Assembly: GCA_903884375.1 (NCBI GenBank) | Contig: CAISER010000025.1 | Coordinates: forward strand, 1,637-65,636 | From: Candidatus Collierbacteria bacterium | GTDB taxonomy: Bacteria > Patescibacteriota > Microgenomatia > UBA1400 > MFAQ01 | DNA length: 64,000 nt | Direction of reading: 5' to 3' | The notes under the pieces: generated by a model | What the model was told of the DNA's origin: nothing | The model's database searches: none | The model's input: the letters and a program-made list of their open reading frames with translations, nothing else | Program-made: the position numbers and the translations under genes | In this document: positions 8,888 through 61,743 of the stretch, piece after piece | How the letters are laid out: each line of letters opens with the position of its first letter | How positions within the stretch are numbered: position 1 is the stretch's first letter

Positions 8888-10174
8888 CTAATCCAAGAAT
8901 TTATCGTAACTGTACATGAAAAGTTGAGAGTTGATGGTTTTTAAAATCTCAAGAACAACCGAGACAACGATGAGAATGCTGGTACCGCCAATGGCTAACG
9001 ATGCTATACCAGTAAAGCCTGACATTATCGAGGGAAGAATGGCAACCAATCCGAGAAAACTGGCGCCAACCAAAGTAATACGGGTGAGAACAAAATTAAG
9101 ATAGTCTACGGTATTTGGGCCTGGTCTGATTCCCGGAATAAACGAGCCGGAAGAACGAAGATCTTTGGCAATTTTTTCCGGATTGAATACAACGGCAGTA
9201 TAGAAATAGGTAAAAGCAACAACAAGAACAAAGTAAAGAATATTGTAGAGAGCAGAACTGGGAGTAAGAAGACGACTAATCGTGGTAGCAAAACCAGCAA
9301 GAGCAGGTTGATTTACCCTACCCAATATCTGACTAAGCATCCCCGGAATAAGCATAAAAGAAACTGCAAAGATGATGGGAATAACACCGGCTTGGTTTAA
9401 ACGAAGAGGTAAATGAGAACTGGCGACAGCACTGTATGACGAAGAACCTCCACGACGAGCCGACTGAATAGGAATTTCACGAACTGCTTCTCCGGTTCTC
9501 ACAATCGCATAGATAGCGGCGATAGCAAAAATAAGAAAAATTAGATAGGAAAATATTTTAGTCTGATCTATAGTAGTAAGAGTTTGCATAAGATTTATCG
9601 GAATACGACTAACGATGCCAACAAAGATAATTAAACTAATACCGTTTCCCAGACCGTAATCGTTTAACTGTTCACCCATCCAAATAAGGAGAGAGGTTCC
9701 GGCGGCTAAGGTAAAAACGATTGAAGCCAGTTGTAGAGGATCTACTGTAGTAGTTAATCCCTGCTTTTGAAGAAGAAAAATAAGTGCTATACCTTGAAGA
9801 AAACAGAGAGGAATAGTGAGAAGACGAGTATATTGATTAATTTTTTGACGACCATAATCCCCTTCTTTTTGAAGAGCTTCAAGCTTGGGGATAACCATGC
9901 CGAGCATCTGGAAAATAATTGAGGCGTTGATGTAAGGGTTTAGACCAAGGGCCATAATGGAAAAGTTACCTAAAGTGCCACCAGAAAAGACGTCAAGAAG
10001 TGAGAGAAAGGCAGAGGAATTGAACATCTCTTTGAGGGCAGCGAGATTGATCCCTGGTGCCGGAACGTGGGCTACCAGGCGGAAAATAGCGATGATTATG
10101 GCAGTAAAAATTAGACGATTGCGTAGCTCTTTGATTTTTATGAGAGCACGTAGCGGAGCTAATATATTATTCAT
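8888..10174 (-). CDS. secY: preprotein translocase subunit SecY
   Basis: Multi-TM protein with the typical SecY N-terminus (LRNRLIFTAIIIAIFRL) in the spc-operon position. Start placed at the ATG at 10174 (MNNILAPL...); the track start at 10204 is a TTG. Confidence 0.9.
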   Translation of the reverse strand: MNNILAPLRALIKIKELRNRLIFTAIIIAIFRLVAHVPAPGINLAALKEMFNSSAFLSLLDVFSGGTLGNFSIMALGLNPYINASIIFQMLGMVIPKLEALQKEGDYGRQKINQYTRLLTIPLCFLQGIALIFLLQKQGLTTTVDPLQLASIVFTLAAGTSLLIWMGEQLNDYGLGNGISLIIFVGIVSRIPINLMQTLTTIDQTKIFSYLIFLIFAIAAIYAIVRTGEAVREIPIQSARRGGSSSYSAVASSHLPLRLNQAGVIPIIFAVSFMLIPGMLSQILGRVNQPALAGFATTISRLLTPSSALYNILYFVLVVAFTYFYTAVVFNPEKIAKDLRSSGSFIPGIRPGPNTVDYLNFVLTRITLVGASFLGLVAILPSIMSGFTGIASLAIGGTSILIVVSVVLEILKTINSQLFMYSYDKFLD

Positions 10175-10187
10175 TGGTTTTATTTTA

Positions 10188-10691
10188 TCAGGTTCGTAGT
10201 GCAATTAAGGCAATGTTGTAAACAAAATTGATGGGTGTTCGTTCTAGAATAATACCAGCACTTGCACAAGTGGCAAAAAGATTTACCCCTAAAGCTTCTG
10301 GATTAAAAATGACGTCACCTTGAATATCGGGCCTACCTGGAAGTTCGTTTTCAAGAAAATGTCTAAGTTCACTGCGGAGATGGTTTTGCCAGTGACGGGG
10401 ATTTCTTAGGGCTCTATCCGTCCAGTCGGGATGTTTTTCTCTTTTTTGGGCCAAGTATTCGGCAAAATTAAAACGGATTGCAGCAATATGTGCTTCTTTT
10501 TGATAAATGTCGGGAAAGTATGGAACATGGGGAGGACAACCAGTTTTGTAATTCCAGTTTGGACAGCCTTGGGGATGATTGTAGTAAGCATCACGGCAAT
10601 GGGCTTTGATTCGAGGATCACAAACAACTTCAACCGGACCAATAAATAATTTTTCTCTTTCGATAAATTTAATTTCTTTTTCAACAGACAT
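10188..10691 (-). CDS. Cys/His/Trp-rich protein of unknown function, possibly DUF2284-like metal-binding protein
   Basis: 167-aa ORF between rplO and secY. The motif HCRDAYYNHPQGCPNWNYKTGCPPHVP recalls the C...GCP.Y....CPP.P pattern I associate with DUF2284. It is not a known member of the spc operon. Confidence 0.5.
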   Translation of the reverse strand: MSVEKEIKFIEREKLFIGPVEVVCDPRIKAHCRDAYYNHPQGCPNWNYKTGCPPHVPYFPDIYQKEAHIAAIRFNFAEYLAQKREKHPDWTDRALRNPRHWQNHLRSELRHFLENELPGRPDIQGDVIFNPEALGVNLFATCASAGIILERTPINFVYNIALIALRT

Positions 10692-10712
10692 CGTGGTGAA
10701 ATTTTACACCAT

Positions 10713-10740
10713 AAAAAAGACCCCTTGAGGGGCCTTTTTT
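10713..10740 (-). terminator. intrinsic terminator after rplO
   Basis: AAAAAAGACCCCTTGAGGGGCCTTTTTT: a short GC stem (CCCC/GGGG plus an outer G-C) around a TTGA loop, flanked by A6 and T6. On the minus strand the T-run follows the hairpin. Confidence 0.6.
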
Positions 10741-10754
10741 GTTTTTAATTCTAG

Positions 10755-11204
10755 TTACTTAGAAAAGGTGTATTTTCCACCAGCTTTTTCGATGGCTTTG
10801 ATAGCTCCGGCCGTGGCTAGAACATTGACTTCAAGAGCTTTTTCGAGCTTACCTGTGGCAATGATCTTGAAGCCACGTTTGGCTTCTTTGTCACTTACTT
10901 TGAAAGTTTTGACGAGGAGTGCAGCGTCAATGACGTCTTTGTCGTTGAAATATTTGGAGAGGATATCAAAGTTAACAGTGATTGGCTGAAGGTTAATGAC
11001 TTGGAATCTGTGTTTACCTTTAATGAAAGGGGTACGACGGACGATTGGAAGCTGTCCACCTTCAAACCAAAGGGGCATAACACCACGGGTCTTTTGGCCC
11101 TTTTGGCCACGACCAACGGTGTGACCGCCAACTCCTGAACCATAACCTCGACCAAGGCGTTTTTTACCGGTTTTGACTGATTTGGGTAGATTAGATAAGT
11201 TCAT
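10755..11204 (-). CDS. rplO: 50S ribosomal protein L15
   Basis: GRGYGSGVGGHTVGRGQKGQKTR motif. Confidence 0.95.
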   Translation of the reverse strand: MNLSNLPKSVKTGKKRLGRGYGSGVGGHTVGRGQKGQKTRGVMPLWFEGGQLPIVRRTPFIKGKHRFQVINLQPITVNFDILSKYFNDKDVIDAALLVKTFKVSDKEAKRGFKIIATGKLEKALEVNVLATAGAIKAIEKAGGKYTFSK

Positions 11205-11209
11205 AGGAT

Positions 11210-11743
11210 TTAGGCTTTGGTTTTAAGTTCTTTTAAGAGTTTGTATTTCTTGGCAAGTGACTCAACCTGTTTTAAAGCTTTGAAGGTGGCTCTAGCGTTG
11301 GTAGTCTTGTTGTTTGATCCAAGGGCTTTACAGACAATATCAGTGACTCCTGCGGCCTCAACAACGGCACGGATTGAAGAACCGGCGATGATGCCTGTAC
11401 CTTTAGGAGCTGGACGGAAGAGAACTTTACTGGCACCAAATTTAGAAATGGTCTCGTAAGGGATGGTACCGTTGACCAATGGAACTTGAACCAGATCACG
11501 ATTTCCAAGACGAATGGCTTTTTTTATTGCATCGGCAACGTTTGGGGCTTTGGCCAGACCAAGACCGACTTTACCTTTTTTGTCACCGGTAACGACTAAG
11601 GCAGAGAAAGAAACGTTGGAACCACCTTGAGTCTTTTTACTAACACGGCGAATTTGAAGGACTTGCTCGAAACCATCAGACTGAGGACGTTCTCCTCGGC
11701 CACCACGGTTACTGTTGTTGTTTGAGTTGTTTGAAGGATTCAT
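11210..11743 (-). CDS. rpsE: 30S ribosomal protein S5
   Basis: RRVSKKTQGGSNVSFSALVVTGDKKGKVGLGLAKA motif, with an Asn-rich N-terminal extension. Confidence 0.95.
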   Translation of the reverse strand: MNPSNNSNNNSNRGGRGERPQSDGFEQVLQIRRVSKKTQGGSNVSFSALVVTGDKKGKVGLGLAKAPNVADAIKKAIRLGNRDLVQVPLVNGTIPYETISKFGASKVLFRPAPKGTGIIAGSSIRAVVEAAGVTDIVCKALGSNNKTTNARATFKALKQVESLAKKYKLLKELKTKA

Positions 11744-12113: not shown

Positions 12114-12665
12114 TTAAGCGGCAGTAGTTTTTGTGGCTGTCTTACCTTGTTTTTTGATAACAACTTCATCAGCGTAGCGAATACCTTTACCTTTATATGG
12201 TTCAGGTTTTTTGAGCTCACGGATATTGGCGGCAACTTGACCGACAAGTTGTTTGTCGATACCCGAGATGTGAATTTTGTCTTGACCTTCAACTATCATA
12301 TTGACGCCTTCAACTTTTTTGAAAATGACGGGGTGACTGAAACCTAAAGATAGAGAAAGACCTTCAGCTGTAGCGGCTACACGATAACCTGTGCCTAAGA
12401 GCTGAAGATGTTTTTCGTATCCTTCGGTAACTCCAGTAACGCAGTTTTGGGCTAAACGACGAGCGAGGCCATGAAGGGCTCTAACTGATGGAATATCGTT
12501 TTCGCGAGTAAAGTTTATAACATTGTCTTTTTGTTCGACTTTAATTCCCTTGGGAACAACGGATTCAAGAGTACCTTTTGGTCCAGTGAATTTAAGCGAA
12601 GTATCAAGCATTTCTACTTTAACAGTTTCGGGGAGATATAGAGGTTTTCTTCCTATGCGGCTCAT
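12114..12665 (-). CDS. rplF: 50S ribosomal protein L6
   Basis: MSRIGRKPLYLPETVKV N-terminus. Start placed at the ATG at 12665. Confidence 0.95.
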   Translation of the reverse strand: MSRIGRKPLYLPETVKVEMLDTSLKFTGPKGTLESVVPKGIKVEQKDNVINFTRENDIPSVRALHGLARRLAQNCVTGVTEGYEKHLQLLGTGYRVAATAEGLSLSLGFSHPVIFKKVEGVNMIVEGQDKIHISGIDKQLVGQVAANIRELKKPEPYKGKGIRYADEVVIKKQGKTATKTTAA

Positions 12666-12669
12666 ATTT

Positions 12670-13059
12670 TTACCAAATTTGACAAATAACTTCACCACCG
12701 AGATGTTTTTCTCGAGCGGTTTTTCCGGTCATGAGACCTTGTGATGTAGAAACAATGGTGGTACCAGCACCGGATAAGGCTTGAGGAATTTTGTCGAAGC
12801 CGGAATAGATTCTTACACTGCCTTTACTAATACGTTTAATACCAGTAACGGCAGGAAGATCTTTTTCGAAATAACGAAGGTCAAGAATAATTTTTTTTGA
12901 TGGTTTGGTGTTTTCTACAGAGTAATCAGTAATGTAACCGTCGGCCTTAAGAAGTTTTGCGATTCCTTCACAAACTATAGTGTGTTTGGCTATGACGGTA
13001 TCTTTTTTTGCGAGATAGCCGTTTCTTATAATGGTGATGAAGTCAGCAATTGTATCCAT
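12670..13059 (-). CDS. rpsH: 30S ribosomal protein S8
   Basis: MDTIADFITIIRNGY N-terminus and GGEVICQIW C-terminus. Start placed at the ATG at 13059. Confidence 0.95.
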   Translation of the reverse strand: MDTIADFITIIRNGYLAKKDTVIAKHTIVCEGIAKLLKADGYITDYSVENTKPSKKIILDLRYFEKDLPAVTGIKRISKGSVRIYSGFDKIPQALSGAGTTIVSTSQGLMTGKTAREKHLGGEVICQIW

Positions 13060-13060
13060 A

Positions 13061-13246
13061 TTATTTTGACATTTTGTAGACGCCCGGAAGTTCACCTTTG
13101 TGGGCTAATTCTCTAAAGCACAAGCGACATAATCCGAAGATTCGAATGACACCTCGAGGTCTGCCACATAATTGACAACGACGACGATCTCTAGTCGAGT
13201 GACCAACTAATCTTTTTGATTTTTCGATTTTACTTGTTTTAGCCAT
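13061..13246 (-). CDS. rpsN: 30S ribosomal protein S14 type Z (zinc-binding, 61 aa)
   Basis: [33 protein letters not shown]. Confidence 0.95.
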
Positions 13247-13254
13247 GGTTTAAC

Positions 13255-13806
13255 TTAGTTTGCGTCTTTGGTAAAAGGCATACCGAGAGCAGTAAGAAGC
13301 ATCAGGGAAGTTTTTGCGTCTTTGGCACTTGTTGAAATAGTAATTTCCAAGCCTTGAATCCTGCCTATTTTATCATATTCGACCTCGGGAAACACAATTT
13401 GTTCGGAAAGCCCGAGAGTGTAGTTGCCATTTTGATCAACGGTTTTTTGAGAAACACCTTGGAAGTCTTTAATACGAGGCAGAACAATGGAAGTGAGTTT
13501 TTGGAAAAAGTCATACATACGATTACCTCTAAGAGTAACTTTGATTCCAACAACTTCTCCTTCACGAAGATTAAAGGCAGCGATACTGTGTTTGGCTTTA
13601 GTTTCAACAGGTGCTTGGCCGGTGATTTGGGTGATCCATGCCTTGGTTTTGGCGAGAAGCTCTTTGTCTGTTTTGAAGTCTCTGGATGAAGTATTTAATG
13701 TAATTTTCACCAATTTTGGGGTAGCTTCAATCGAAGAAAGTCCTAGCTCTTTTTGTAAAGCCGGTCTGATTGTTTTTTGATAGTTTTCTTTTAGTGTTTG
13801 AGTCAT
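13255..13806 (-). CDS. rplE: 50S ribosomal protein L5
   Basis: LKENYQKTIRPALQKELG N-terminus and GLEITISTSAKDAKTSLMLLTALGMPF. Confidence 0.95.
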   Translation of the reverse strand: MTQTLKENYQKTIRPALQKELGLSSIEATPKLVKITLNTSSRDFKTDKELLAKTKAWITQITGQAPVETKAKHSIAAFNLREGEVVGIKVTLRGNRMYDFFQKLTSIVLPRIKDFQGVSQKTVDQNGNYTLGLSEQIVFPEVEYDKIGRIQGLEITISTSAKDAKTSLMLLTALGMPFTKDAN

Positions 13807-36256: not shown

Positions 36257-38419
36257 TTATTTCTCTTTCAGCTCAAACTTGATGTTTTTTAGAGGAATAT
36301 AGTTGGCAAAAACAGGAATTTTGGGAGATATTCTGATGGTCAGATGGTCAAAACCTTGGATTGTGGTAAAAAAAGGACGAATATCGGCGGCCGGTTTCCC
36401 TTTGATAAATCCAGCAGTTTTTATCTCATCAATTTTAGGAAAAAGACTGGTTTCCACATTTATTTTGGCTTCATAGAAACTTCCTTTATTGGTGGGAGTT
36501 TCAAGTTTCATGGAAGTGTTACCGGGAAAAATTTCCGAACCGGAAGAAATTTTTGGAGAAAGCTGATTCGAAACTAACTGAAATAATCCGTCTTCGGAAT
36601 AAACAAGTGTTTCAACAGAACCTTCTAAATCAAGGTTGAGAACGGTGGCTTCTTCACCAACATTTTTATCAAAAGTTTTTTTGGTATAGGTAAAATCAGA
36701 CAGGGCTAAGGATTTATAACCCGTTGTTTGATCCCCTGTCGATGATTGAATCTGGGACGTTATCTTTTCACCAGCGATTTGAAGTAATTTTTCTTGATCA
36801 ATTTTCGAAACTGCTTGAACAGCTCTCGACGTACCACCGGAAAAGTCTGAGTCCGCCACAGCTACAATGGTGTTTTTTGAGTAGTTATCAACTGAAAAAG
36901 CAGAATTTTTGGGTAGATTGTGATCGGCACCAATTTTAGTAGCAGTTACTTTTACGCCTGAGGCAATTCCATAAGCACCCTGAACAATACCGACATCGGC
37001 GCTTTTGGAAGCGATGGTAATAGCCTCAGTAATGAGATAAGAATATTTGCCATTATCAGATAAGATTGAAGCACCTGATTTTAGAATAATCGGAGCAGTT
37101 GATTTGTTGGCGACAGTGATAATACCATTAGCTTTATCACCAACTGTTGCTTCTCCAGTGGTTGGAATTTGTTCTTTGGCGGAACCGAAAACTGTTTTTT
37201 TGGTGGCAAGTAGAGTTGGCGAACCGGAAATAGTGCTCTCGGCTATTGAAATTGAAAATTGATCGTTAATTTTTTCAGGTTTGAAATATATAGAGATGAT
37301 TGCTTGGCCGGTAAAAAGATAAAAAACAAAGCCTAAAATCAAAAATGCGGGAATAATAAGAAGATATAACCAGGAAAATTTACTTATTTTTAAGTTTGGA
37401 AAGTGAAATTTGGGTAATGAAGGAAGGGGTAGGGTATATTTTTGTTTGGGAGTTTTTATAAGAAGCGGTTCTTCGGGTTCAATAGCATATTCCGATTCTT
37501 CAGGTTCCGTTACCGATTCTATAATTGGCTCGGGCGGAGCTTTTTCAAGTGAGTCTGGAGCGGTTGATTCTTCGTAAGAAAAACCCAATTCACTTATAGA
37601 AGATGGTGTAACTTCGGGGATATAAATATTTGTTTCTTCTCGCGGAAGACTTTCTTCGTGAGTGTCTTCGATAACTTGCCCGGTAAGGTACTGAACAGCT
37701 TCGGTTCCTCCGGTGAGAGCAATGGCTTTAATACTAAAATCAACTGCCAATACTTCAACTTTTGGCATGTGCTGAAAAGGAAGGCGTTCTTGCCACGGAT
37801 GTGAAGTTATTCGTTGTTCCTCTTCTTCCAAGACTCCACCGTTAGTGAGAATAAAACGAGTGGGAAGTTTTTCGTGGCCGATCACGGTAAGCCCTTCTTC
37901 TACATCTTGTGCGAGGTCATCTGACCTTGCAGCTTCTTCTGAAGAAGTAATTTCACCTTTTTCTATAATTGAAACAACAACTTTGGTGGTATAAATCTCT
38001 AACAGAATAGCTGTCGGAGGAATACCTTCAAGTTTTTTCATGTAATGGGCAATTGCCGAGTTTATGGGAACCATACCAATCGGGTTAAGGCCCAACTCTT
38101 TTACCAGTCTGGCAATAAGTTTCGTTTTTGAAGGATGTATTTTGCCGTCATGTATCCAAGAATCCGGCAAACCAAAAATGACTTTACGCGGTTCTGCTTT
38201 AATTATTTTGACAGCTTGTTCGAGAGAGGCATCAACACCATTAATAAGTGAGTCTTCATCGGTCCAAGACTCAAATGAACCGACACTTACAACCGAAGGA
38301 TTGCCATTGGCAATTTCCCAAAGGGCGGTTTTGATTAAAGATTCATGGATTTCGATGGCCAAAAAATATTCCGGTTCTGTGGATTTTGATTTGTTCCCAA
38401 ATAGATTTACAAGATTCAT
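36257..38419 (-). CDS. bitopic membrane protein: cytoplasmic PilM/FtsA-like actin-fold domain, acidic/Pro linker, TM helix, large beta-rich external domain
   Basis: The N-terminus FLAIEIHESLIKTALWEI...LGLNPIGMVPINSAIAHY...LEIYTTKVVVSII resembles PilM/FtsA ATPase folds. TM helix is FSWLYLLIIPAFLILGFVFYLF. The C-terminal ~350 aa is Ser/Thr/Gly-rich. Start placed at the ATG at 38419 (the track start is a TTG). Confidence 0.5.
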   Translation of the reverse strand: MNLVNLFGNKSKSTEPEYFLAIEIHESLIKTALWEIANGNPSVVSVGSFESWTDEDSLINGVDASLEQAVKIIKAEPRKVIFGLPDSWIHDGKIHPSKTKLIARLVKELGLNPIGMVPINSAIAHYMKKLEGIPPTAILLEIYTTKVVVSIIEKGEITSSEEAARSDDLAQDVEEGLTVIGHEKLPTRFILTNGGVLEEEEQRITSHPWQERLPFQHMPKVEVLAVDFSIKAIALTGGTEAVQYLTGQVIEDTHEESLPREETNIYIPEVTPSSISELGFSYEESTAPDSLEKAPPEPIIESVTEPEESEYAIEPEEPLLIKTPKQKYTLPLPSLPKFHFPNLKISKFSWLYLLIIPAFLILGFVFYLFTGQAIISIYFKPEKINDQFSISIAESTISGSPTLLATKKTVFGSAKEQIPTTGEATVGDKANGIITVANKSTAPIILKSGASILSDNGKYSYLITEAITIASKSADVGIVQGAYGIASGVKVTATKIGADHNLPKNSAFSVDNYSKNTIVAVADSDFSGGTSRAVQAVSKIDQEKLLQIAGEKITSQIQSSTGDQTTGYKSLALSDFTYTKKTFDKNVGEEATVLNLDLEGSVETLVYSEDGLFQLVSNQLSPKISSGSEIFPGNTSMKLETPTNKGSFYEAKINVETSLFPKIDEIKTAGFIKGKPAADIRPFFTTIQGFDHLTIRISPKIPVFANYIPLKNIKFELKEK

Positions 38420-38430
38420 GACGACAGTCG

Positions 38431-40269
38431 TCAAACAAATTGTAAATAAAGGCGGCGTGTCCCTGCGCCAAGCGACTCTTGTTTGACTATCTTTATCTTA
38501 GCAAGTTCTTCAGTGTTCGTCACGTGGGGACCTCCACAAATCTCTTTGGAAAACGGATTATTTTTGTTCCCGATGGTGTAGACACTAACAATATCAGGAT
38601 ATTTTTGTCCAAAAAAGGCCATGGCACCTTCTTTTATTGCTTTTTCTTTAGGCATTTCTTCGCGGGTGACCGCTTGTTTTTCTGCGATAGTTTTATTAAT
38701 TAATTCTTCGACCTGTAGGAGCTCTCCGTCTGTTAATTTTTCTGGGTGAGAAAAATCAAACCTTAGTCTTTGCGCTGTTAAATTTGAACCTTTTTGACCA
38801 ATATGGTTTCCAAGTATTTGACGTAGAGCCGAGTGAAGAAGATGAGTAACAGTATGATAAGCGGTGACTGTTTTTGAGTTGTCTTCAAGACCACCCTTAA
38901 ACATACCAACAGAAGCAGTCCGACTAAGTTCTTTGTGTTTTTCAAATTCGGTTTCAAATTGATTGGTATCGATTTTAATATCCATTTGAGACAAAATCTC
39001 TGTGGTAATTTCAATGGGGAAACCGTAGTTTTGGTAAAGGTCAAAGGCTGTTTTCCCATCAATGTGGGGGTTTTTTTGAAGTTCTTTAATTCCTTTATCG
39101 AGTGAGAAACCAAATTTTTTTATTTCTACCCTTATCGTTTCAAAAATAACCGGAATATCTTTTTTTATTTCAAAATATATGGGTGAGTAAAATTGACAGA
39201 CAAGTGAACTTATTGGAGCCATCTTTTCCAGTATTTCGAGATTGCCTGTAAGAAAATACATTTTTACAGCTGCGCGGCGAAGTAGTCTTCTTAAAACATA
39301 GCCTTGAGCTTTATTTGTGGGGAAAACTCCGTCTTTAATCAAAAAAGTTGCAGCAGTTAAATGGTCTGCAATAACTCGCATTGAGGGCTGATTGATAACA
39401 TCAGAGTAAGACTTACCAGATATTTTTTCGATTTCTTGAATCAGGGGGTATAGGCTGCTAATTTTAAACATATCCGGTTCGGAATTGGTAACTGCTTCGA
39501 GTCTGGTAAGCCCACCACCAAAATCAATATTTTTTCGAGGAAGCTCCACCAAAGAACCGTCTTCATTTTTAATATATTGCATAAAAACAGAATTACCAAT
39601 TTCCAAGAAACGTCCACATTCACAGTTGGGGTGACATTTTTCATTTTTAAATGGTGATTTTTCATGAAGCAGACGATTTTCACCAAAATCAAAGAAAACT
39701 TCAGAATCTGGACCGCCTGGTTCACCTGGGGGCATATTTTCCGGCACCCCTGCTCTAGACCACCAATTTTTATTTGACTGATAGGCAAAAATGCGCTCAC
39801 CTTCTTTTGCCGTAAGACCGACTTTTTTAAATAAATCTTGCCAGATGGCAATTGATTCAATATCCTTACCCACTCCAGAACCACCCCCAAATACCGTGAT
39901 AAATAATTTTTTAGGGTCAAGACCAAGACCTTCATCTTTTTTTGTTAAAAATGTAAAAAACCATTCGAGCTGTTTGTCTTTAAAATAATCGCCTAAAGAC
40001 CAGTTCCCTAACATTTCAAAAAAAGTGGTATGACGATTATCACCAATTTCATCAATGTCACCAGAACGGAAACATTTTTGAGAATCAACCAGACGGGTAC
40101 CAAGGGGATGTTTTTGACCTAATAGATAAGGCATCATGGGTTGCATCCCAGCGGAAGTAAAGAGAGTAGTGGCGTCACCTTCTGGAACTAACGAAGAAGA
40201 GGGAATAATGGAATGACCTCGTTTTTCCATAAATAAGAGATATTTCTGCCTTATTTCATTGATGGTCAT
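38431..40269 (-). CDS. alaS: alanine--tRNA ligase lacking the C-Ala domain
   Basis: FTSAGMQPMMPYLLG class II motif. Editing-domain metal motifs HTVTHLLHSALR and CGGPHV. The protein ends right after the editing domain (612 aa). Confidence 0.9.
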   Translation of the reverse strand: MTINEIRQKYLLFMEKRGHSIIPSSSLVPEGDATTLFTSAGMQPMMPYLLGQKHPLGTRLVDSQKCFRSGDIDEIGDNRHTTFFEMLGNWSLGDYFKDKQLEWFFTFLTKKDEGLGLDPKKLFITVFGGGSGVGKDIESIAIWQDLFKKVGLTAKEGERIFAYQSNKNWWSRAGVPENMPPGEPGGPDSEVFFDFGENRLLHEKSPFKNEKCHPNCECGRFLEIGNSVFMQYIKNEDGSLVELPRKNIDFGGGLTRLEAVTNSEPDMFKISSLYPLIQEIEKISGKSYSDVINQPSMRVIADHLTAATFLIKDGVFPTNKAQGYVLRRLLRRAAVKMYFLTGNLEILEKMAPISSLVCQFYSPIYFEIKKDIPVIFETIRVEIKKFGFSLDKGIKELQKNPHIDGKTAFDLYQNYGFPIEITTEILSQMDIKIDTNQFETEFEKHKELSRTASVGMFKGGLEDNSKTVTAYHTVTHLLHSALRQILGNHIGQKGSNLTAQRLRFDFSHPEKLTDGELLQVEELINKTIAEKQAVTREEMPKEKAIKEGAMAFFGQKYPDIVSVYTIGNKNNPFSKEICGGPHVTNTEELAKIKIVKQESLGAGTRRLYLQFV

Positions 40270-45454: not shown

Positions 45455-45697
45455 ATTTATTTATTTAATTACTAAACTTTCAACACAGAATCACTGCTTG
45501 AATACGCCACAATAAGGTGGCAAAACTTAATTTATTTTACACTTACTAAGGGGATTGTTTTCGGAACCAAAGCTGCAATAAACTTGGGGTCAAAGATACT
45601 TTTCTTAGTCAAGCCAAAACTTAATATAGGACTATTATACCACAATAATAAATAATTAGTGTTTACATTGAAGAGAAAAAGAGTAAACTATTTTTGA

Positions 45698-47062
45698 ATG
45701 GAAAAATTGGTGAAAGAAAGAGTGATTCGAATATTTAATTTATCAGAGGATGTTTGGCCTTTTATTGAAACGATGGGCAACAAAAAGGCAAGAATGTCGG
45801 AGATTGAGGAAAACGCAAACTTGGCCGACCGTGATTTGTTTTCAATGGCTGAGGAGTTTGAGTTTACCTTTATCACTCCCAAAAAACTGGATCCCCATTT
45901 CGTAAACTACTTTATCAAAGTTTGTATGATGCGGGAAATGGAAGTATTGGTTCCCAAAAAAAATAGTGGACTTATTTGTGAGGATATTTTGGCGGATAAG
46001 GAGATTATGAAGAGGCTTGTTAAACTGGGGAAGAGCTGTAAAAGATTGGTGCTTACCGCCTACTCTACTTCGCCATATTTTTTACACTTGGTTGGCGAGT
46101 TACGGAAAAAGGGAATTGAAGTACGAACACCAGAAGCTCCAGATGAGGCTAATGCTTGGACGGTAAATTTTTACGGAAGCAAATCGGGGATAAGACAACT
46201 GACACAGATAAACGGGGCAATTAGAGCGGACTTGAAAATGCCTAATGGAGTTGTTTCCTCGGGAGTGTTGGACTCTGCAAGGATAGCGGCAAATAAATAT
46301 ATAAAGGAAAATGGAGTAGTAATCAAAACAAACAAAGGCCACTCAGGAATGGGAGTACTTATTTTCCGTAAAGGTGATTTGCCGAAAAAATATCGAGAGT
46401 GTCAGAAAAAAATTATTGAAATATTTAACGGAGACAGTTACTGGGAAAAATTTCCGATCGTGGTGGAGTCTTTGGTAAAACCCAATCCTCGGATCGGAGG
46501 AGGTTTTCCAAATGCGGAGTTTTTGATAAAAAAAGATGGCGAGGTAAAACTTTTGTATTACTGTGGAATGCGAGTAGACGACAAGGGCGTTTTTGGCGGA
46601 GTGGAGATAGGAGAAGAAGTATTGCCTCGTCGTGTGACTTCCAGAATTACCGATATCGGTTATCTAATTGGCGAACAGTATGCCGAAGACGGTTATCGTG
46701 GTTTTTTTGATATTGATTTTATTGCCGGAAAAGGTGGAGAGATATTTGTGAATGAGTCGAATGTAAGAGTCACTGGAGGAACACATGTGTATCAAGCAGC
46801 AGTAGAACTGGCTGGGCGAGAGTTTATGAAGAAAGTCTATGTGTTGTCGAATAATAACTACGATATTCCAAACAAAAAAATCTTTACTTTCGACAGACTT
46901 CATAAACTAATGAAACCGATACTTTTTGACAGAAAAACGCGTGAGGGATTGGTGATTGCATCGTCAAATCTATTGGCAATGGGAAAACTGGCTTACATTA
47001 TTTTTGGAAAAAATAAACGTAGAGCTTTGGCCGTCGAGGAAGAGATGACGAGATTATTATAA
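45698..47062 (+). CDS. ATP-grasp ligase with pre-ATP-grasp domain (PGM1-like peptide-ligase family, tentative)
   Basis: YGSKSGIRQL..., the central strand VVIKTNKGHSGMGVLIF, and the Mg/ATP-site region FFDIDFIAGKGGEIFVNESNVRVTGGTH. One of only four plus-strand genes. Confidence 0.55.
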   Translation: MEKLVKERVIRIFNLSEDVWPFIETMGNKKARMSEIEENANLADRDLFSMAEEFEFTFITPKKLDPHFVNYFIKVCMMREMEVLVPKKNSGLICEDILADKEIMKRLVKLGKSCKRLVLTAYSTSPYFLHLVGELRKKGIEVRTPEAPDEANAWTVNFYGSKSGIRQLTQINGAIRADLKMPNGVVSSGVLDSARIAANKYIKENGVVIKTNKGHSGMGVLIFRKGDLPKKYRECQKKIIEIFNGDSYWEKFPIVVESLVKPNPRIGGGFPNAEFLIKKDGEVKLLYYCGMRVDDKGVFGGVEIGEEVLPRRVTSRITDIGYLIGEQYAEDGYRGFFDIDFIAGKGGEIFVNESNVRVTGGTHVYQAAVELAGREFMKKVYVLSNNNYDIPNKKIFTFDRLHKLMKPILFDRKTREGLVIASSNLLAMGKLAYIIFGKNKRRALAVEEEMTRLL

Positions 47063-47193: not shown

Positions 47194-48255
47194 TCACCAC
47201 TTTGGTAGAAATGATTTTATATTTTCGGGCGTGAGAGATATTGTCTTGGCTTGACCGGTAACAATTAATAGAGCAACTTTACGGACAATACCTTCGATCG
47301 TGCGATTTAGGGTACGAATACCGGCGTCGTAACCTAGAGGACGAATAATCATCGGCCAGAGAGCAGGGTCAATGGTAATGATTGAGGGATCCATACCGGC
47401 GGCTTCCAAAGCTTTGGGGAATAGATATTCGAGGGCAATATGAGTTTTTTCATCGTCGGAGTAAGAAGGCATTTGAATTGGTTCCAAACGATCCATAACG
47501 GCGGTCGCTAAATTGCCCGTGTTGTTGGCCGTGGCGATAAACATAACTTCGGAAAGGTCAACGGGGTAATCAATAAAGTGATCGAGAAAACGATTGTTTT
47601 GCGTTGGATCAAGAAGCTCGACCAAAACACCCATAATATCAGCTCTGGCTTCTTCGGTAACACGGTCGATTTCATCCAGAAGAATAATGGGGTTTTTAAC
47701 TCCCGTATCACAAAGAGCTCTGACCACATAACCAGGTTCGGCTTCAAGATGTAGACGAGACTGGCCACGTAAGTCTTTAGCTGAACCCAAACCTCCAAAA
47801 GGAATACGGGCAATGGGGCGGCCAAGCGCTTCAGAGAGGGCATAAGCAAAAGTAGTTTTACCGGTACCAACAAGACCAACTAAGCAAACAATCGGAGCTC
47901 TCCCCGCTCCAAGGTTTCTGGTGGTACGGAGTTTTAAGATAGACATATATTCAAGAATTCGTTCCTTGACCTCGTTCATGCCGTAGTGATTTTTATCAAG
48001 TGTGGCCTTGATAGCAGTTAAGTCAATCGGGCGTTCGACTCTTTTTGTCCAAGGAACTTTGGCAACCCAAGAAATATAGTGGCTGATTTTTTCGTATTCT
48101 TCAGAAAAAAATCCTTGGGTGGAAAGACGCTCGAGACGAGCAATCATATCAAGAGTATTTTCTTTTAACTCTGGGGGTGTTTCGATACTTTCAATTTTTT
48201 GACGAAGATCATCAAGAAGAGTATTGGCTTTTGTGGTGATTGGAGCAGGATCCAT
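47194..48255 (-). CDS. stand-alone Lon-type AAA+ ATPase module (no LAN N-domain, no protease domain)
   Basis: Collinear with the Lon ATPase region: VPWTKR, HYGMNEVKERILEYM, Walker A GLVGTGKTT, Walker B IILLDEIDR, FIATAN, MDRLE and YDAGIRTL. The ORF stops (…SFLPKW) where Lon proteins continue into the Ser-Lys peptidase domain. Confidence 0.75.
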   Translation of the reverse strand: MDPAPITTKANTLLDDLRQKIESIETPPELKENTLDMIARLERLSTQGFFSEEYEKISHYISWVAKVPWTKRVERPIDLTAIKATLDKNHYGMNEVKERILEYMSILKLRTTRNLGAGRAPIVCLVGLVGTGKTTFAYALSEALGRPIARIPFGGLGSAKDLRGQSRLHLEAEPGYVVRALCDTGVKNPIILLDEIDRVTEEARADIMGVLVELLDPTQNNRFLDHFIDYPVDLSEVMFIATANNTGNLATAVMDRLEPIQMPSYSDDEKTHIALEYLFPKALEAAGMDPSIITIDPALWPMIIRPLGYDAGIRTLNRTIEGIVRKVALLIVTGQAKTISLTPENIKSFLPKW

Positions 48256-48367: not shown

Positions 48368-49363
48368 TTATCGAATATTGTAGGTTGGTGGCTTAGTGCT
48401 GCCGCTACCGGTGTTAATTCTGCACAAACTATCGTTAGTACAAGTGCTTTTAGGACATGTTGAGCTAATATTGACAGTTTTTGATATTGATTTACAAAGA
48501 TTGTTACTACATGTTTTGTAAATACAAACTTTTGTGTTTGCCACTCCTGATCCCACTGTCGAGCATTTACATGTAATGCTCCCATCTTTACAGGTACACA
48601 CTCTGCTCTTTGATTGTCCTGTTCCACAACCTAATGATGCCGGACAATTACCGGAACATTGATTATATGATTGACCGCTGGCAAAAGTATAACCATCACT
48701 GGTAGTGCAAGTGCCAGGCTTAATGATGGTACCGGCACAAGTATTATCATTTGAGCCTTTGCATGTACTAGTAGGACAGGTCGAACTTTGTTTAAAGGTC
48801 ATGTTATATGACTTACACTGACCCTGATAACACTGGGACCATTTACATTCTTTAGTCCCTGAGGGAACGGGCTCTTTATCGGCTATGCATTGGCCGACTG
48901 CGGAACTGGCGGTATAGTTTAAGGCAATTTTTCCATTACCACAGTGATAACCAGAGCAACACTGCCGGACATCATTCCAAGAAAAAACTCCACAGTGTCC
49001 ACCTTCTTCCACACACCTATTTGAAGTTGGTCGAGGTTTTTCAGTGCAATTCGATGGTTTACAGCTCGCGGTAAACGCTCTGCTCTCGCCTCCACCAGTG
49101 TAAGCGCAAATTTCTCCGGTTTTGCAGCCACCTTCCCAACCACATTTATTTGCGGTTGCCAGGCTGCTGCCACAAGTAACGTTTGCCGCTGCTGGTTCAC
49201 TTTCTGGAGCATTGGGGGCTACGGCTTGTCTGGCAGTTAATTGAGCAGCAATAAAAAGAACGGCACCAAGAATAGCAGCAAAAATTAAGACAGGAAAAAA
49301 CTTTTTCAAAAAAGGATTAGTATGCTGTTTGACAATCGTCTTCTTGGGCATCTTCTTGGCCAT
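48368..49363 (-). CDS. membrane-anchored/exported cysteine-rich protein (32 Cys) with internal repeats
   Basis: Basic N-terminus plus TM/signal anchor FFPVLIFAAILGAVLFIAAQL, then 32 Cys in about 270 aa. Two paralogous modules carry the pattern C..CKS.....T....SSTCP.STC. Confidence 0.6.
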   Translation of the reverse strand: MAKKMPKKTIVKQHTNPFLKKFFPVLIFAAILGAVLFIAAQLTARQAVAPNAPESEPAAANVTCGSSLATANKCGWEGGCKTGEICAYTGGGESRAFTASCKPSNCTEKPRPTSNRCVEEGGHCGVFSWNDVRQCCSGYHCGNGKIALNYTASSAVGQCIADKEPVPSGTKECKWSQCYQGQCKSYNMTFKQSSTCPTSTCKGSNDNTCAGTIIKPGTCTTSDGYTFASGQSYNQCSGNCPASLGCGTGQSKSRVCTCKDGSITCKCSTVGSGVANTKVCIYKTCSNNLCKSISKTVNISSTCPKSTCTNDSLCRINTGSGSTKPPTYNIR

Positions 49364-52404: not shown

Positions 52405-53319
52405 TCAACCATTGTCACCAACACGGAAGATTTTAGGTTTGTTCCAGTCTGCCGGGATTGAGGTACCAGCTTCATTGGTAGATAGGTTTTCTTCTTCCGG
52501 AAGAGGAATGTTTTCTTCGGTAGGAGCCGATGGAACATCGGGCACTTCAAAAAATGGCGCTTGGGAAAAACGAGGAGTTTGAACTTTTGTTTTTGGAAGA
52601 TGAGCACCGGAGCGCATAAGGAAAGCAATGGCTTCAAAGGTGTCTGCCGTTAGATTGCCTGTGGATAAATTATTGGAACTTTCGTAAATATTGGTTAATA
52701 GATTTTGAGAAACAGAAGTGTTTAGTTTTAATTTTAATTCCTTGAGAAGACCAATAACCAACTCAGAAAAAGAACCCATGTTTTTGTGATAAAGATTGCC
52801 GGTAAATGCGGCTGGTCGAAGAGTATTGTTGAGATTTAGAATGGTGGCATTATCCAAAAAGTTTTTTTCATCGGCATAAATTTTTCCTAATTCTTCGAGA
52901 GAATTAATACCAAGAGTAATGACTAAGTCGGCTTGAGCTCCTGAGTAAGAGTATTTAACACCGCCGATATCGGGAACGGGAGCACCAGTTTTGGGTTTTA
53001 CCAATAGATAAAATTTGCCGTCATCTCTGACATCGTAGTCAACTTTATCCAAATCTTCTTCACGATAATCAAAGGAGATAATTAAGTTACGACTACCAAT
53101 GGAGTCGGGGATGTTTTTTATACCATTAGTTTCGTCATCAACTTCGACTTCACTTCCACAACCGATTTGAGAAATTTTCCCTGATTGTTTTAGAGCAAGA
53201 TGAAGACTGATTCCGGCGGTAACAAGATCTTTTCCTGGATCGGGAGGAAGAATAATAATAATAGACTTGGCAGATTTAATTAAATTATTAACGTTTATTT
53301 CCGATTTGTTGTCTTCCAT
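52405..53319 (-). CDS. DHH-fold (NrnA-like) protein with all catalytic motifs substituted and no DHHA1 domain
   Basis: Collinear with the NrnA DHH domain, but motif I is PPDPGKD (for PDPD), motif II is ITLGINS (for VCDTAN), motif III is LNLNNT (for IDHH) and motif IV is YESSNNL (for VGDTGRF). The C-terminus is a Pro/Glu-rich tail. Confidence 0.55.
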   Translation of the reverse strand: MEDNKSEINVNNLIKSAKSIIIILPPDPGKDLVTAGISLHLALKQSGKISQIGCGSEVEVDDETNGIKNIPDSIGSRNLIISFDYREEDLDKVDYDVRDDGKFYLLVKPKTGAPVPDIGGVKYSYSGAQADLVITLGINSLEELGKIYADEKNFLDNATILNLNNTLRPAAFTGNLYHKNMGSFSELVIGLLKELKLKLNTSVSQNLLTNIYESSNNLSTGNLTADTFEAIAFLMRSGAHLPKTKVQTPRFSQAPFFEVPDVPSAPTEENIPLPEEENLSTNEAGTSIPADWNKPKIFRVGDNG

Positions 53320-60351: not shown

Positions 60352-61743
60352 ATGGCTAGAAAAAGTGAGTTGTTTAAAAGCTTGATACCGTTGATTTTTG
60401 GATTAATAGTGATAGTCATTGTGGTAGAAGTAATCCCAAACGCGGTTAAGTTGGTTAGCAAAGCTTCGGGACAAAAAGCTGATTTAGTTTTTAATCTTGA
60501 AGGTGTTATCGGAAAGATGCCTACACCTTGGAGAAACTTGGCACAGGGAGGAGAAGAACAGGGTGATATGATTTCCAAAGTAATACCGGAAGTTCGGGCA
60601 CTAAAACCTGAGTATATTCGTATTGACCATATATATGACGCATATAAAGTAGTATCCAGAAATGAGGGGCAGCTCGTTTATGACTGGTCGCGTCTTGATA
60701 GTGCAGTAGCTTCAATCATGGCAACTGGTGCTAAGCCATTTTTATCTTTGTCTTATATGCCGGAAGTTATTGCCAAAGGAGATATAGTGTCGGCAGCTCG
60801 TGACTGGAGTGAGTGGGGACAGGTAGTGGGAGCAACAATTCAACATTACAGTGGCATAAATCAAAAAAATATTGATGGCGTAATTTATGAAGTGTGGAAT
60901 GAACCTGATTTGTTTGGCGGTTTTAAAACATACGGAGAGAAAAATTATCTTGATATGTATGCCGCCTCGGCTCGAGCGGCCGCTAATGTTCGTGGAACAA
61001 ATTTATTTGAAATTGGAGGACCGGCAACTACCGGACTTTATCAAAACTGGCTGGAAAGATTAATTAAATTTGTGGAAGCTAATAGTTTGAGAATGGATTT
61101 TATTAGTTGGCATAAATACACAACCGATCTTGAACAGTTCGAAAAAGATGTTACTTCCGCTAGATCTTGGGCAGAAAACATTCCAGCATTAATAAATCTA
61201 AAGTACTACGTAACAGAGTGGGGTTTTGATAGTGAAAACAACAAAGGATATGACGAGAGAAGCGGAGCTATCCATTTATTGGCGGCAACTAGAACTATGG
61301 TGGGAACTGTCGACCGTGCCTTTGTATTTGAAATAAAAGATGGTCCGGGACCGGAAAAATACTGGGGGCGATGGGGAGTTCTCACCAATGAAAAATTCGG
61401 TACACCCGAGAAAAAGCCTCGATATGAAGCGATCGAGTTTATCAATAGCTTGTATCCGTATCGTATAAGCGTTTCCGGTGAAGGATCTTGGATTAAGAGT
61501 TTGGCAACAGCAAATGAAAATGGTGATATTAAAATTTTGGTGACCAACTACGATTCAAAGAACAGCCATGTTGAAGCAGTGCCAATAACTTTGGAAAATT
61601 TACCAAAGAGTAAGTTCACAATTGTTCGAGATAACTTTATGGGAGAAAGTAGAAGTTTAAAAGTGGCTACAACAAGTGCGACATGGAAAACCAGTGAGTA
61701 TTTTGAACCAAACTCGGCGGCAATATTTACGATAAATTTTTAA
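60352..61743 (+). CDS. membrane-anchored clan GH-A glycoside hydrolase (GH39/GH5-like)
   Basis: N-terminal TM helix LIPLIFGLIVIVIVVEVI. Acid/base motif YEVWNEPDL and nucleophile motif YYVTEWGF, spaced as in (beta/alpha)8 clan GH-A enzymes. Confidence 0.6.
   Translation: MARKSELFKSLIPLIFGLIVIVIVVEVIPNAVKLVSKASGQKADLVFNLEGVIGKMPTPWRNLAQGGEEQGDMISKVIPEVRALKPEYIRIDHIYDAYKVVSRNEGQLVYDWSRLDSAVASIMATGAKPFLSLSYMPEVIAKGDIVSAARDWSEWGQVVGATIQHYSGINQKNIDGVIYEVWNEPDLFGGFKTYGEKNYLDMYAASARAAANVRGTNLFEIGGPATTGLYQNWLERLIKFVEANSLRMDFISWHKYTTDLEQFEKDVTSARSWAENIPALINLKYYVTEWGFDSENNKGYDERSGAIHLLAATRTMVGTVDRAFVFEIKDGPGPEKYWGRWGVLTNEKFGTPEKKPRYEAIEFINSLYPYRISVSGEGSWIKSLATANENGDIKILVTNYDSKNSHVEAVPITLENLPKSKFTIVRDNFMGESRSLKVATTSATWKTSEYFEPNSAAIFTINF

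Follow-up and report, generated by a model that had tools for sequence, protein, structure and literature searches.

A conserved core gene of Microgenomates-type Patescibacteria probably encodes a stand-alone amide ligase of the PGM1/BesA superfamily

A stretch of 64,000 nucleotides from a Candidatus Collierbacteria bacterium (assembly GCA_903884375.1, contig CAISER010000025.1, positions 1,637 to 65,636 of the forward strand; hereafter the window, in which position 1 is the first letter) contains, at 45698..47062 on the plus strand, a complete gene for an ATP-grasp protein of 454 amino acids. This protein is probably a catalytically competent, stand-alone amide ligase of the PGM1/BesA type, encoded by a core gene, and it may act as a step of a short-peptide pathway. 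Patescibacteria, or Candidate Phyla Radiation (CPR), have minimal genomes in which most conserved 'hypothetical' genes are unexplained, and a firm enzymatic class, that of the PGM1-type peptide-bond-forming ligases, can now be given to one of them. To our knowledge, ligases of this type have so far come only from actinomycete antibiotic pathways. Patescibacteria are unable to make most amino acids, and a slowly evolving ligase kept in such hosts implies that they need a peptide made without ribosomes, or a modification of a peptide.

The open reading frame (ORF) starts with ATG at 45698 and ends with the stop codon at 47060-47062. Its start is ambiguous by four codons, as an identical public protein (P0001) has 450 amino acids and matches the GTG at codon 5 (45710). 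The gene is real, with 732 clusters matching at E ≤ 1e-3 in a collection of 5.8 billion proteins, and the top 120 clusters share 53-100% identity with the protein over 72-100% of its length (at least 96% of the length except for four fragments). The peptides quoted in the initial annotation, which proposed a PGM1-like ATP-grasp ligase from the letters alone, are all present in the translation: DRDLF...FIKV (residues 44-75), YGSKSGIRQL (159-168), VVIKTNKGHSGMGVLIF (207-223) and FFDIDF...TGGTH (336-363).

As a single sequence, the ligase has only sub-threshold family matches, all of which agree in direction. PGM1_C (PF18105; residues 408-448) scores 19.7 bits versus a cut-off of 22.5 and PreAtp-grasp (PF18604; residues 59-133) 20.0 bits versus 27.5, neither reaching its gathering score, while BesA (NF042917; residues 273-376 only) scores 28.8 bits versus an equivalog cut-off of 750 and LdmS 16.5 bits versus 475. 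At E ≤ 1e-3, 16 of the 63 family representatives match PF18604 and 10 match PF18105 (best E 2.7e-10 and 3e-9, respectively), and thus the family as a whole connects to these two models, with the window ligase as a distant member. The only sequence relatives of the ligase in PDB are the 'ATP-grasp peptide ligase' 8ynd, PGM1 and BesA. They are reached at 1.7e-9, 1e-6 and 2e-5, respectively, by a profile of 32 close homologues, and at 7e-28, 2e-27 and 1e-18, over the full length, by a profile of the 63 representatives (down to 22% identity). From the family alignment, AlphaFold2 gives a confident model (predicted local distance difference test, pLDDT, 89.9; predicted template-modelling score, pTM, 0.88), and Foldseek returns the same two tiers as the profiles, where the PGM1-group structures have the nearest fold and stand clearly apart from other ATP-grasp families. 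The three-part architecture of a pre-ATP-grasp N-domain, an ATP-grasp core and a PGM1-type C-terminal domain is found over the full length, and two distant plasmid homologues are annotated by NCBI as 'peptide ligase PGM1-related protein'. Hidden Markov model (HMM) profiles, fold search and active-site comparison all place the ligase with the PGM1 group, in agreement with the initial proposal.

The ligase is none of Ddl, RimK, PurK, CarB, a graspetide cyclase and a cyanophycin synthetase. The RimK-type ATP-grasp domain of the RimK/LysX ligases, which act on ribosomal or carrier proteins, is not its best match; the Ddl fold and sequence models do not fit it; and neither the MdnC-like fold nor the adjacent precursor peptide of a graspetide macrocyclase (MdnB/MdnC type) is found. 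Models of the cyanophycin synthetase CphA do not match the ligase, faint similarity being confined to the Ddl-like neighbours of its relatives, and the PADLOC defence models give no match to it either. By sequence and predicted structure, the ligase is a member of the PGM1/BesA superfamily, and it is an orthologue of neither PGM1, BesA nor LdmS, as its equivalog scores lie far under the cut-offs.

One of the nearest known enzymes is PGM1, the peptide ligase for pheganomycin in Streptomyces cirratus (PDB 3wvq/3wvr; PF18604 and PF18105). The window ligase is only 18-20% identical to PGM1, from which it differs by a GGGFPN loop (a gap in the PGM1 alignment) and a strongly conserved N-x-S-E-D-V-W-P-F segment, and it is encoded by a lone, slowly evolving core gene of Patescibacteria, while PGM1 belongs to an actinomycete antibiotic cluster; the precursor-peptide and non-proteinogenic-acid genes of a pheganomycin-type cluster are not near the window ligase. 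Identity to 8ynd/8ynq, an 'ATP-grasp peptide ligase from Streptomyces' released in 2025, is 16-19%, and 8ynd likewise comes from an actinomycete. BesA, the L-propargylglycine--L-glutamate ligase (PDB 8yi6, NF042917), differs by its lysine at the position of R166, and no bes-type genes are found near the window ligase. LdmS, the L-aspartate--L-methionine ligase of Staphylococcus aureus (PDB 7r8p; PMC9486568), lies clearly outside the PGM1 tier and has no match to a PGM1_C-type terminal domain. Ddl and MurD2/MurL-type enzymes are related to the ligase in another way, as relatives of the window ligase adjoin genes of Ddl-family ligases and, in one lineage, of a MurL-like protein; all of these enzymes would build or edit short D-amino-acid-containing peptides with ATP. 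What sets the window ligase apart from every characterised member is its host, a minimal-genome uncultured bacterium, together with its lone core gene, housekeeping rate and subfamily-specific loops.

The N-terminal pre-ATP-grasp domain (approximately residues 1-150; 45698..46147, plus strand) contains the PreAtp-grasp match, N14 and E17, and the motif of residues 14-22. It is followed by the central ATP-grasp nucleotide-binding region (approximately residues 151-330; 46148..46687), supported by invariant columns and by the residue-by-residue alignment to 8ynd, PGM1 and BesA, and then by the C-terminal half (approximately residues 331-454; 46688..47059), which includes the PGM1_C-type terminal domain. 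The central region contains GSKSG (160-164; 46175-46189), the Gly-rich loop KTNKGHSGMG (210-219; 46325-46354), the hinge glutamate E257 (46466-46468) and the subfamily-specific loop GGGFPN (267-272; 46496-46513), opposite which the alignments to PGM1 and 8ynd have a gap of 5 residues. The C-terminal half contains the motif GYRG-x-FD-x-D (332-340; D340 at 46715-46717) and the Mg/catalytic motif E353-S-N355-V-R357-x-TGGTH (46754-46786). Across 123 family sequences, the most distant at 21% identity, nine residues never vary (K162, K210, E257, G301, G335, D340, E353, N355 and R357). In a subset of 63 sequences R166 and P271 do not vary either, and the conservation of N14 and E17 stays at 90% or more to identities as low as 22%.

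In the HMM alignment, K162, K210, E257, D340, E353, N355 and R357 are matched by identical residues of PGM1, 8ynd and BesA. The aligned motifs are SK..FR, an ATP-binding lysine ahead of the Gly-rich loop, the hinge glutamate, GYRG..D.D and E-x-N-x-R, the last of which reads EHNGR in PGM1, EINAR in 8ynd and EINLR in BesA. The N-terminal N-x-S-E-D-V-W-P-F (14-22), VNF[YF]GSKSGIRQ, KTNKGH and the GGGFPN loop are specific to the subfamily. Mean column identity across deep lineages is 68% over the whole length. The aligned motifs are the standard ATP-grasp residues for binding of ATP and Mg2+ and for acyl-phosphate chemistry, and, since the full set is kept, the ligase is very probably active.

By analogy with its superfamily, the enzyme would bind ATP and Mg2+ between the central and C-terminal domains (K162, K210, E257, D340, E353 and N355) and phosphorylate the carboxylate of one substrate to an acyl-phosphate, with R357 in a stabilising role; an amino acid or short peptide would then attack the acyl-phosphate through its free amine, giving a peptide (amide) bond, ADP and Pi. 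The nucleophile is a peptide N-terminus in PGM1 (PMC8359417, PMC8939145) and an amino acid in BesA (bioRxiv 10.1101/2025.10.10.681649). Given the family assignment, the balance leans slightly towards the ligase being one step of a ribosome-independent pathway in which a short peptide is put together from units resembling amino acids.

Scanning a single genome for each GTDB species with a sequence pattern gave 202 confirmed loci, of which 80 were retrieved; counts for close relatives refer to the 80 closest loci, and the synteny clustering covers 84 loci. The 80 retrieved loci belong to Collier-, Woese-, Gottesman- and Pacebacteria, Microgenomatus, Wirthbacteria and unclassified Patescibacteria, and one retrieved record is labelled TM6 (candidate division TM6, complete genome CP011212.1). 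In an exhaustive library of clusters at 50% identity, 929 related clusters have E ≤ 1e-3, and of these 243 have E ≤ 1e-30; the family passes gradually into lineages outside the CPR, for example KSB1. The sources of the matching clusters give no functional name to any family member, and no paper linking ATP-grasp enzymes with Microgenomates was found in the literature searched. In 22 genome pairs, the identity of the ligase to the window protein, 59-89%, runs parallel to that of FtsK, RNase J and PNPase; the rate at which the ligase evolves is thus that of an essential housekeeping protein and not that of a typical natural-product enzyme. Its gene belongs to the conserved core of Microgenomates-type Patescibacteria and is present in at least 202 species. 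No phage homologues were found, and plasmid relatives occur only at 22-31% identity. Many records of metagenome-assembled genomes in which both the ligase gene and its neighbours are of CPR type bear the title 'uncultured Pseudomonadales' or 'uncultured Gammaproteobacteria' (e.g. L007 and L003, CAZENT010000001.1), and these titles look like placeholders or errors.

In sister lineages, relatives of the ligase are encoded beside Ddl-family enzymes. On the 1.2-Mb contig L086, the 35%-identity representative lies directly after an orthodox-type copy which is 49-50% identical to the window ligase, and this pair is followed by a 503-amino-acid protein weakly similar to MurL (NF041275, E 2e-9; 36 bits versus a cut-off of 700) and then by a Ddl-family ligase. 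Locus L091 encodes a ligase 49.8% identical to the window protein, a MurL-like protein, a Ddl-like protein and then a KamA-like aminomutase; L086 and L091 count as one lineage because their outer synteny is common to both. The MurL-like family (about 500 amino acids) is common in Patescibacteria, some members being labelled DPANN archaea, and its gene adjoins a Ddl-like gene in all four loci examined (L086 9385-11941; L089 7001-9567; L090 7001-10139; L091 7001-9438). This pair may be an unrecognised CPR cassette for D-amino-acid peptides or wall precursors. The radical S-adenosylmethionine gene beside the pair in L089 was considered as a further cassette member and rejected, as it is rlmN and unrelated.

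A metagenome scan seeded with the diverged paralogue, without selection for Ddl, gave 78 loci. In many of these, an orthodox-type ligase has a Ddl-like gene directly after it and, in some cases, another one upstream. Others contain three tandem PGM1-like paralogues, some of them followed by a Ddl-like gene. In L101 (6560-10746), downstream of an M17 aminopeptidase gene, the three tandem paralogues are 48%, 33% and 24% identical to the window ligase; the triple array is also found in L093 (with a diverged Ddl-like gene directly upstream), L097, L099, L105-L107 and L110, and a two-copy array followed by a Ddl-like gene in L108 and L094. When 191 family genes were collapsed to 57 clusters (70% identity), 8 clusters had a Ddl-like gene at ±1 and 15 had one no more than three genes away, and the Ddl-proximal clusters span at least five different arrangements. 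By our estimate, assuming one to three Ddl-like genes among approximately 1000 genes per genome, well under one cluster would be expected by chance. The Ddl-adjacent ligases, of which L122 7977-9398 is an example, retain the signature motifs of the window protein, and their neighbours are of the Ddl family by best match, though under the NCBI cut-off of 243 (162-189 bits for the closer type and 90-108 bits for the diverged type).

Two more distant loci (26-27% identity), L087 (2631-9865) and a Thioflavicoccus plasmid (L170, NC_019941.1, 5341-12172), encode PGM1-like and Ddl-like ligases together with SbnA/SbnB, which are enzymes of 2,3-diaminopropionate synthesis, and a KamA-family aminomutase. 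In the plasmid cluster there is also a diaminobutyrate transaminase, while L087 has two tiny ORFs together with genes for a C39 peptidase and an ABC exporter. These clusters probably make a peptide natural product of diamino or beta-amino acids. The ligase gene of the Thioflavicoccus plasmid is missing from the PLSDB gene table. As it is seen in several arrangements across sister and distant clades, the pairing of PGM1-like and Ddl-like ligases is old and recurrent.

In the sister lineages, the pathway would combine the ligase with a Ddl-like dipeptide ligase, and in some cases with a MurL-like C-terminal epimerase, a KamA-like aminomutase or extra PGM1-like paralogues. A speculative order is that the Ddl-like enzyme would make a dipeptide, the free N-terminus of which the PGM1-like enzyme would acylate. 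In the window lineage the gene stands alone, and any partners would act in trans. It is conceivable, though rather unlikely, that Patescibacteria assemble a short peptide of D- or beta-amino acids without ribosomes, nonribosomal peptide synthetases or Mur ligases, using one to three PGM1-like and one or two Ddl-like ligases, a MurL-like ATP-dependent peptide epimerase and a KamA-like aminomutase, in which case the window ligase would be the universally retained step. The sister-clade cassettes with their Ddl-like, MurL-like and KamA-like enzymes and tandem paralogues offer concrete candidate substrates. The enzyme class itself is unsurprising once recognised, while a universally retained peptide ligase together with these cassettes is a concrete, testable question. 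As PGM1-type ligases are useful biocatalysts for peptide N-terminal acylation, such a large new clade is also of practical interest.

The neighbourhoods of the closest relatives fall into three main synteny groups. In group A, the window clade, genes for a RodZ-like HTH_25 protein, FtsK and RNase J lie on one strand and the ligase gene alone on the opposite strand, followed by genes for a Lon-like AAA+ protein and PNPase. The linkage of RNase J and the Lon-like AAA+ gene to the ligase was considered as a functional partnership and rejected as lineage synteny only. In group B, of Gottesmanbacteria type (32-37 loci), the genes f2 and f1 and the ligase gene follow one another in this order, co-directional with gaps of 24-86 bp, usually followed by a NUDIX gene; an example is L001 (5193-9398), and further ones are L028, L038, L058 and L081. 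The f2 gene encodes a small protein of 130-144 amino acids. The f1 product is a HerA-like protein of 783 amino acids with a transmembrane region and a TrwB/DUF87 ATPase domain, which matches TraD/VirD4 coupling-protein models (PADLOC mad8 match, E 5e-17). This string persists although the median identity of the ligase is 57% (f1, 78%), while its flanks vary, with 10 families at -3 and 12 at +1. The f2 product was rejected as a substrate or precursor for the ligase, as its variable N-terminus and conserved amphipathic C-terminal region are unlike those of a precursor. In group C, the ligase gene is on the opposite strand from the flanking DEAD-box helicase and methyltransferase genes, and a Ddl-like gene is near it in three of the seven loci with enough flank. 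Locus L052 contains two orthodox-type ligase copies (10001-11347 and 12300-13658), 61% identical to each other and separated by one gene, with a diverged Ddl-like gene on the opposite strand 2 kb upstream.

Several observations weigh against the reading of the ligase as a PGM1/BesA-type enzyme of a short-peptide pathway. The window protein lies under the Pfam and NCBIfam cut-offs for every named family. No Ddl-like gene is found at ±1 in the window clade or, with the exception of the L086 cluster, in about 30 other clusters at ≥50% identity, and of the 80 closest loci only 4 have one within 10 kb, a frequency not clearly higher than expected by chance. Many Ddl-adjacent loci have common synteny, so that there are fewer independent events than loci. 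The neighbours are unrelated housekeeping genes that differ by clade, none being common to groups A, B and C, and one large clade has a different conserved linkage, that to the TraD/VirD4-like membrane ATPase.

The cassettes also fit a more specific explanation, in which the ligase, acting together with Ddl, would add an amino acid to, or pre-assemble, a part of the stem peptide or cross-bridge of peptidoglycan, as a functional analogue of the ATP-grasp side-chain ligases or of an alternative early pathway of the MurD2/MurL type. This explanation is possible, though less likely than not. In several sister clades the ligase gene is directly adjacent to the most Ddl-like genes (162-189 bits, full length), a MurL-like epimerase gene lies between the two in L086 and L091, GlmS, VanW and MurJ are encoded in some neighbourhoods, the organism makes a wall (YceG/MltG is encoded in the window), and slow evolution would fit an essential envelope role. 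However, the Ddl-like neighbours all fall under the NCBI cut-offs for Ddl, number two or three in some loci and may not be wall Ddl; the similarity to MurL is weak, as its score shows; the window clade lacks the adjacency; the same ligase pair occurs in clearly secondary-metabolite clusters; and no Mur ligase or MraY gene is linked to the ligase gene in any locus examined. Overall, a product related to the cell envelope or to peptidoglycan precursors is possible without being likely. If the product were wall-related, the reconstruction of CPR peptidoglycan synthesis from genomes would change, and a wall precursor such as a pre-formed stem-peptide fragment or side chain would mean a new peptidoglycan route in a major uncultured radiation. 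The linkage in group B suggests in turn that the ligase might be the partner of a membrane translocation ATPase, modifying or loading a substrate handled at the envelope, since f2, f1 and the ligase stay co-directional in 32-37 loci in spite of diverged ligases and variable flanks, and f1 resembles TraD/VirD4 coupling proteins. This is improbable, as the linkage is limited to one clade, no f1 or f2 homologue is found in the window, and FtsK at -2 in the window clade is probably a coincidence of synteny; we know of no mechanistic precedent which ties ATP-grasp ligases to coupling ATPases.

The secondary-metabolite clusters raise the question of whether the ligase tailors a natural product, joining, like PGM1, a non-proteinogenic acid to a ribosomal peptide whose gene lies at another place in the genome, i.e. 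a ribosomally synthesised and post-translationally modified peptide. Patescibacteria have very little biosynthetic capacity, and conservation at a housekeeping rate across at least 202 species also makes such a role improbable; in close clades, the ligase gene is a lone gene among core genes without precursor ORF, biosynthetic genes or exporter, and the small upstream ORFs of a few relatives are not conserved. On the other side, the characterised relatives PGM1, BesA and 8ynd are all natural-product enzymes of Streptomyces (PMC8939145, PMC13417212), and distant members occur in loci that resemble clusters and contain tiny ORFs as well as genes for a C39 peptidase and an ABC exporter. An amino acid could also be added to the terminus or side chain of a conserved protein, similarly to the action of RimK on S6, of the tubulin ligases or of the enzymes of EF-P beta-lysylation. 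This role, which is unlikely, would be consistent with the very high whole-length conservation across deep lineages, with the position of the gene among translation, RNA-decay and division genes in the window, with the KamA/EpmB-like aminomutase of the L091 cassette and with the acceptance of peptide N-termini by PGM1 (PMC8359417). A diverged housekeeping ATP-grasp enzyme (Ddl, PurK, PurD, CarB, biotin carboxylase, RimK or GshB) might be suspected from the generic ATP-grasp core that these share with the ligase and from a weak NCBIfam match to the 'biotin carboxylase' model PRK06524 (35.8 bits over 75 residues). Such an identity is effectively refuted, however, since with the profile of the 63 representatives biotin carboxylases, the best housekeeping matches, reach only ~1e-3 to 1e-4 versus 7e-28 to 1e-18 for the PGM1 group; a best match to a housekeeping enzyme with conserved substrate-binding residues, named in the initial annotation as the outcome that would overturn it, did not emerge.

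A greedy gene call gives 73 ORFs covering 96% of the window, and the ligase gene is one of only four on the plus strand (28-336, 1284-2228, 45698-47062 and 60352-61743), as had been noted initially; the other three encode a sugar epimerase/dehydratase, a GH39 glycosidase and a 102-amino-acid ORF. The window comprises a core region with ribosomal-protein and rpoBC-sized genes and genes for EF-G, NusA/IF-2, PNPase, DnaK, LepA, FtsK, RNase J and YceG/MltG. The closest source-named relatives, Candidatus Collierbacteria at 88-89% identity, fit the initial remark on a reduced genome. No genes for guanidino-acid biosynthesis, precursor peptides or bes-type enzymes are found near the window ligase, which has RNase J, FtsK, the Lon-like AAA+ protein and PNPase as neighbours.

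The divergent intergenic region between RNase J (minus strand) and the ligase gene (45455..45697, 243 bp) presumably contains the promoter and leader. No credible small or precursor ORF (≥20 amino acids) is found in the leader or in the downstream spacer, no Rfam match to a riboswitch or structured leader is obtained even at E ≤ 1, the predicted folding is not significant (z -0.66 and -0.17), and a scan for promoters and terminators gives nothing above shuffles, with weak promoter-like hexamers at 45621-45649 and 45662-45689. About 130 nucleotides at 45515-45650, including an inverted repeat ACTAAG...CTTAGT, are near-identical in the window, L003 and L006; their predicted structure is no better than shuffles, and the conservation of the leader is confined to these three closest relatives.

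The Lon-like gene (47194-48255, minus strand) is convergent to the ligase gene in 24 loci of Collierbacteria type, with 77-88% identity. Its product of 353 amino acids consists of the AAA+ module and lid only, and lacks the protease domain and most of the N-domain, as its match to TIGR00763 'endopeptidase La' (307 bits versus a cut-off of 608) spans only profile positions 250-571 of 795. Between the Lon-like gene and that of PNPase lies a gene (48368-49363, minus strand) for a 331-amino-acid protein with an N-terminal hydrophobic segment, which is rich in Cys, Gly, Thr and Ser, has a repeated C-x-x-C-like spacing and matches no Pfam family; the close relative L003 has no gene at this place, and a gene for a secreted or surface protein seems to have been inserted here in one lineage only. 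Two further minus-strand ORFs, of 725 amino acids (36257-38434) and 304 amino acids (52405-53319), have no Pfam match at E ≤ 1e-4, and the gene for the latter lies between those of IF-2 and S15 and has an unannotated counterpart in L003 and L004.

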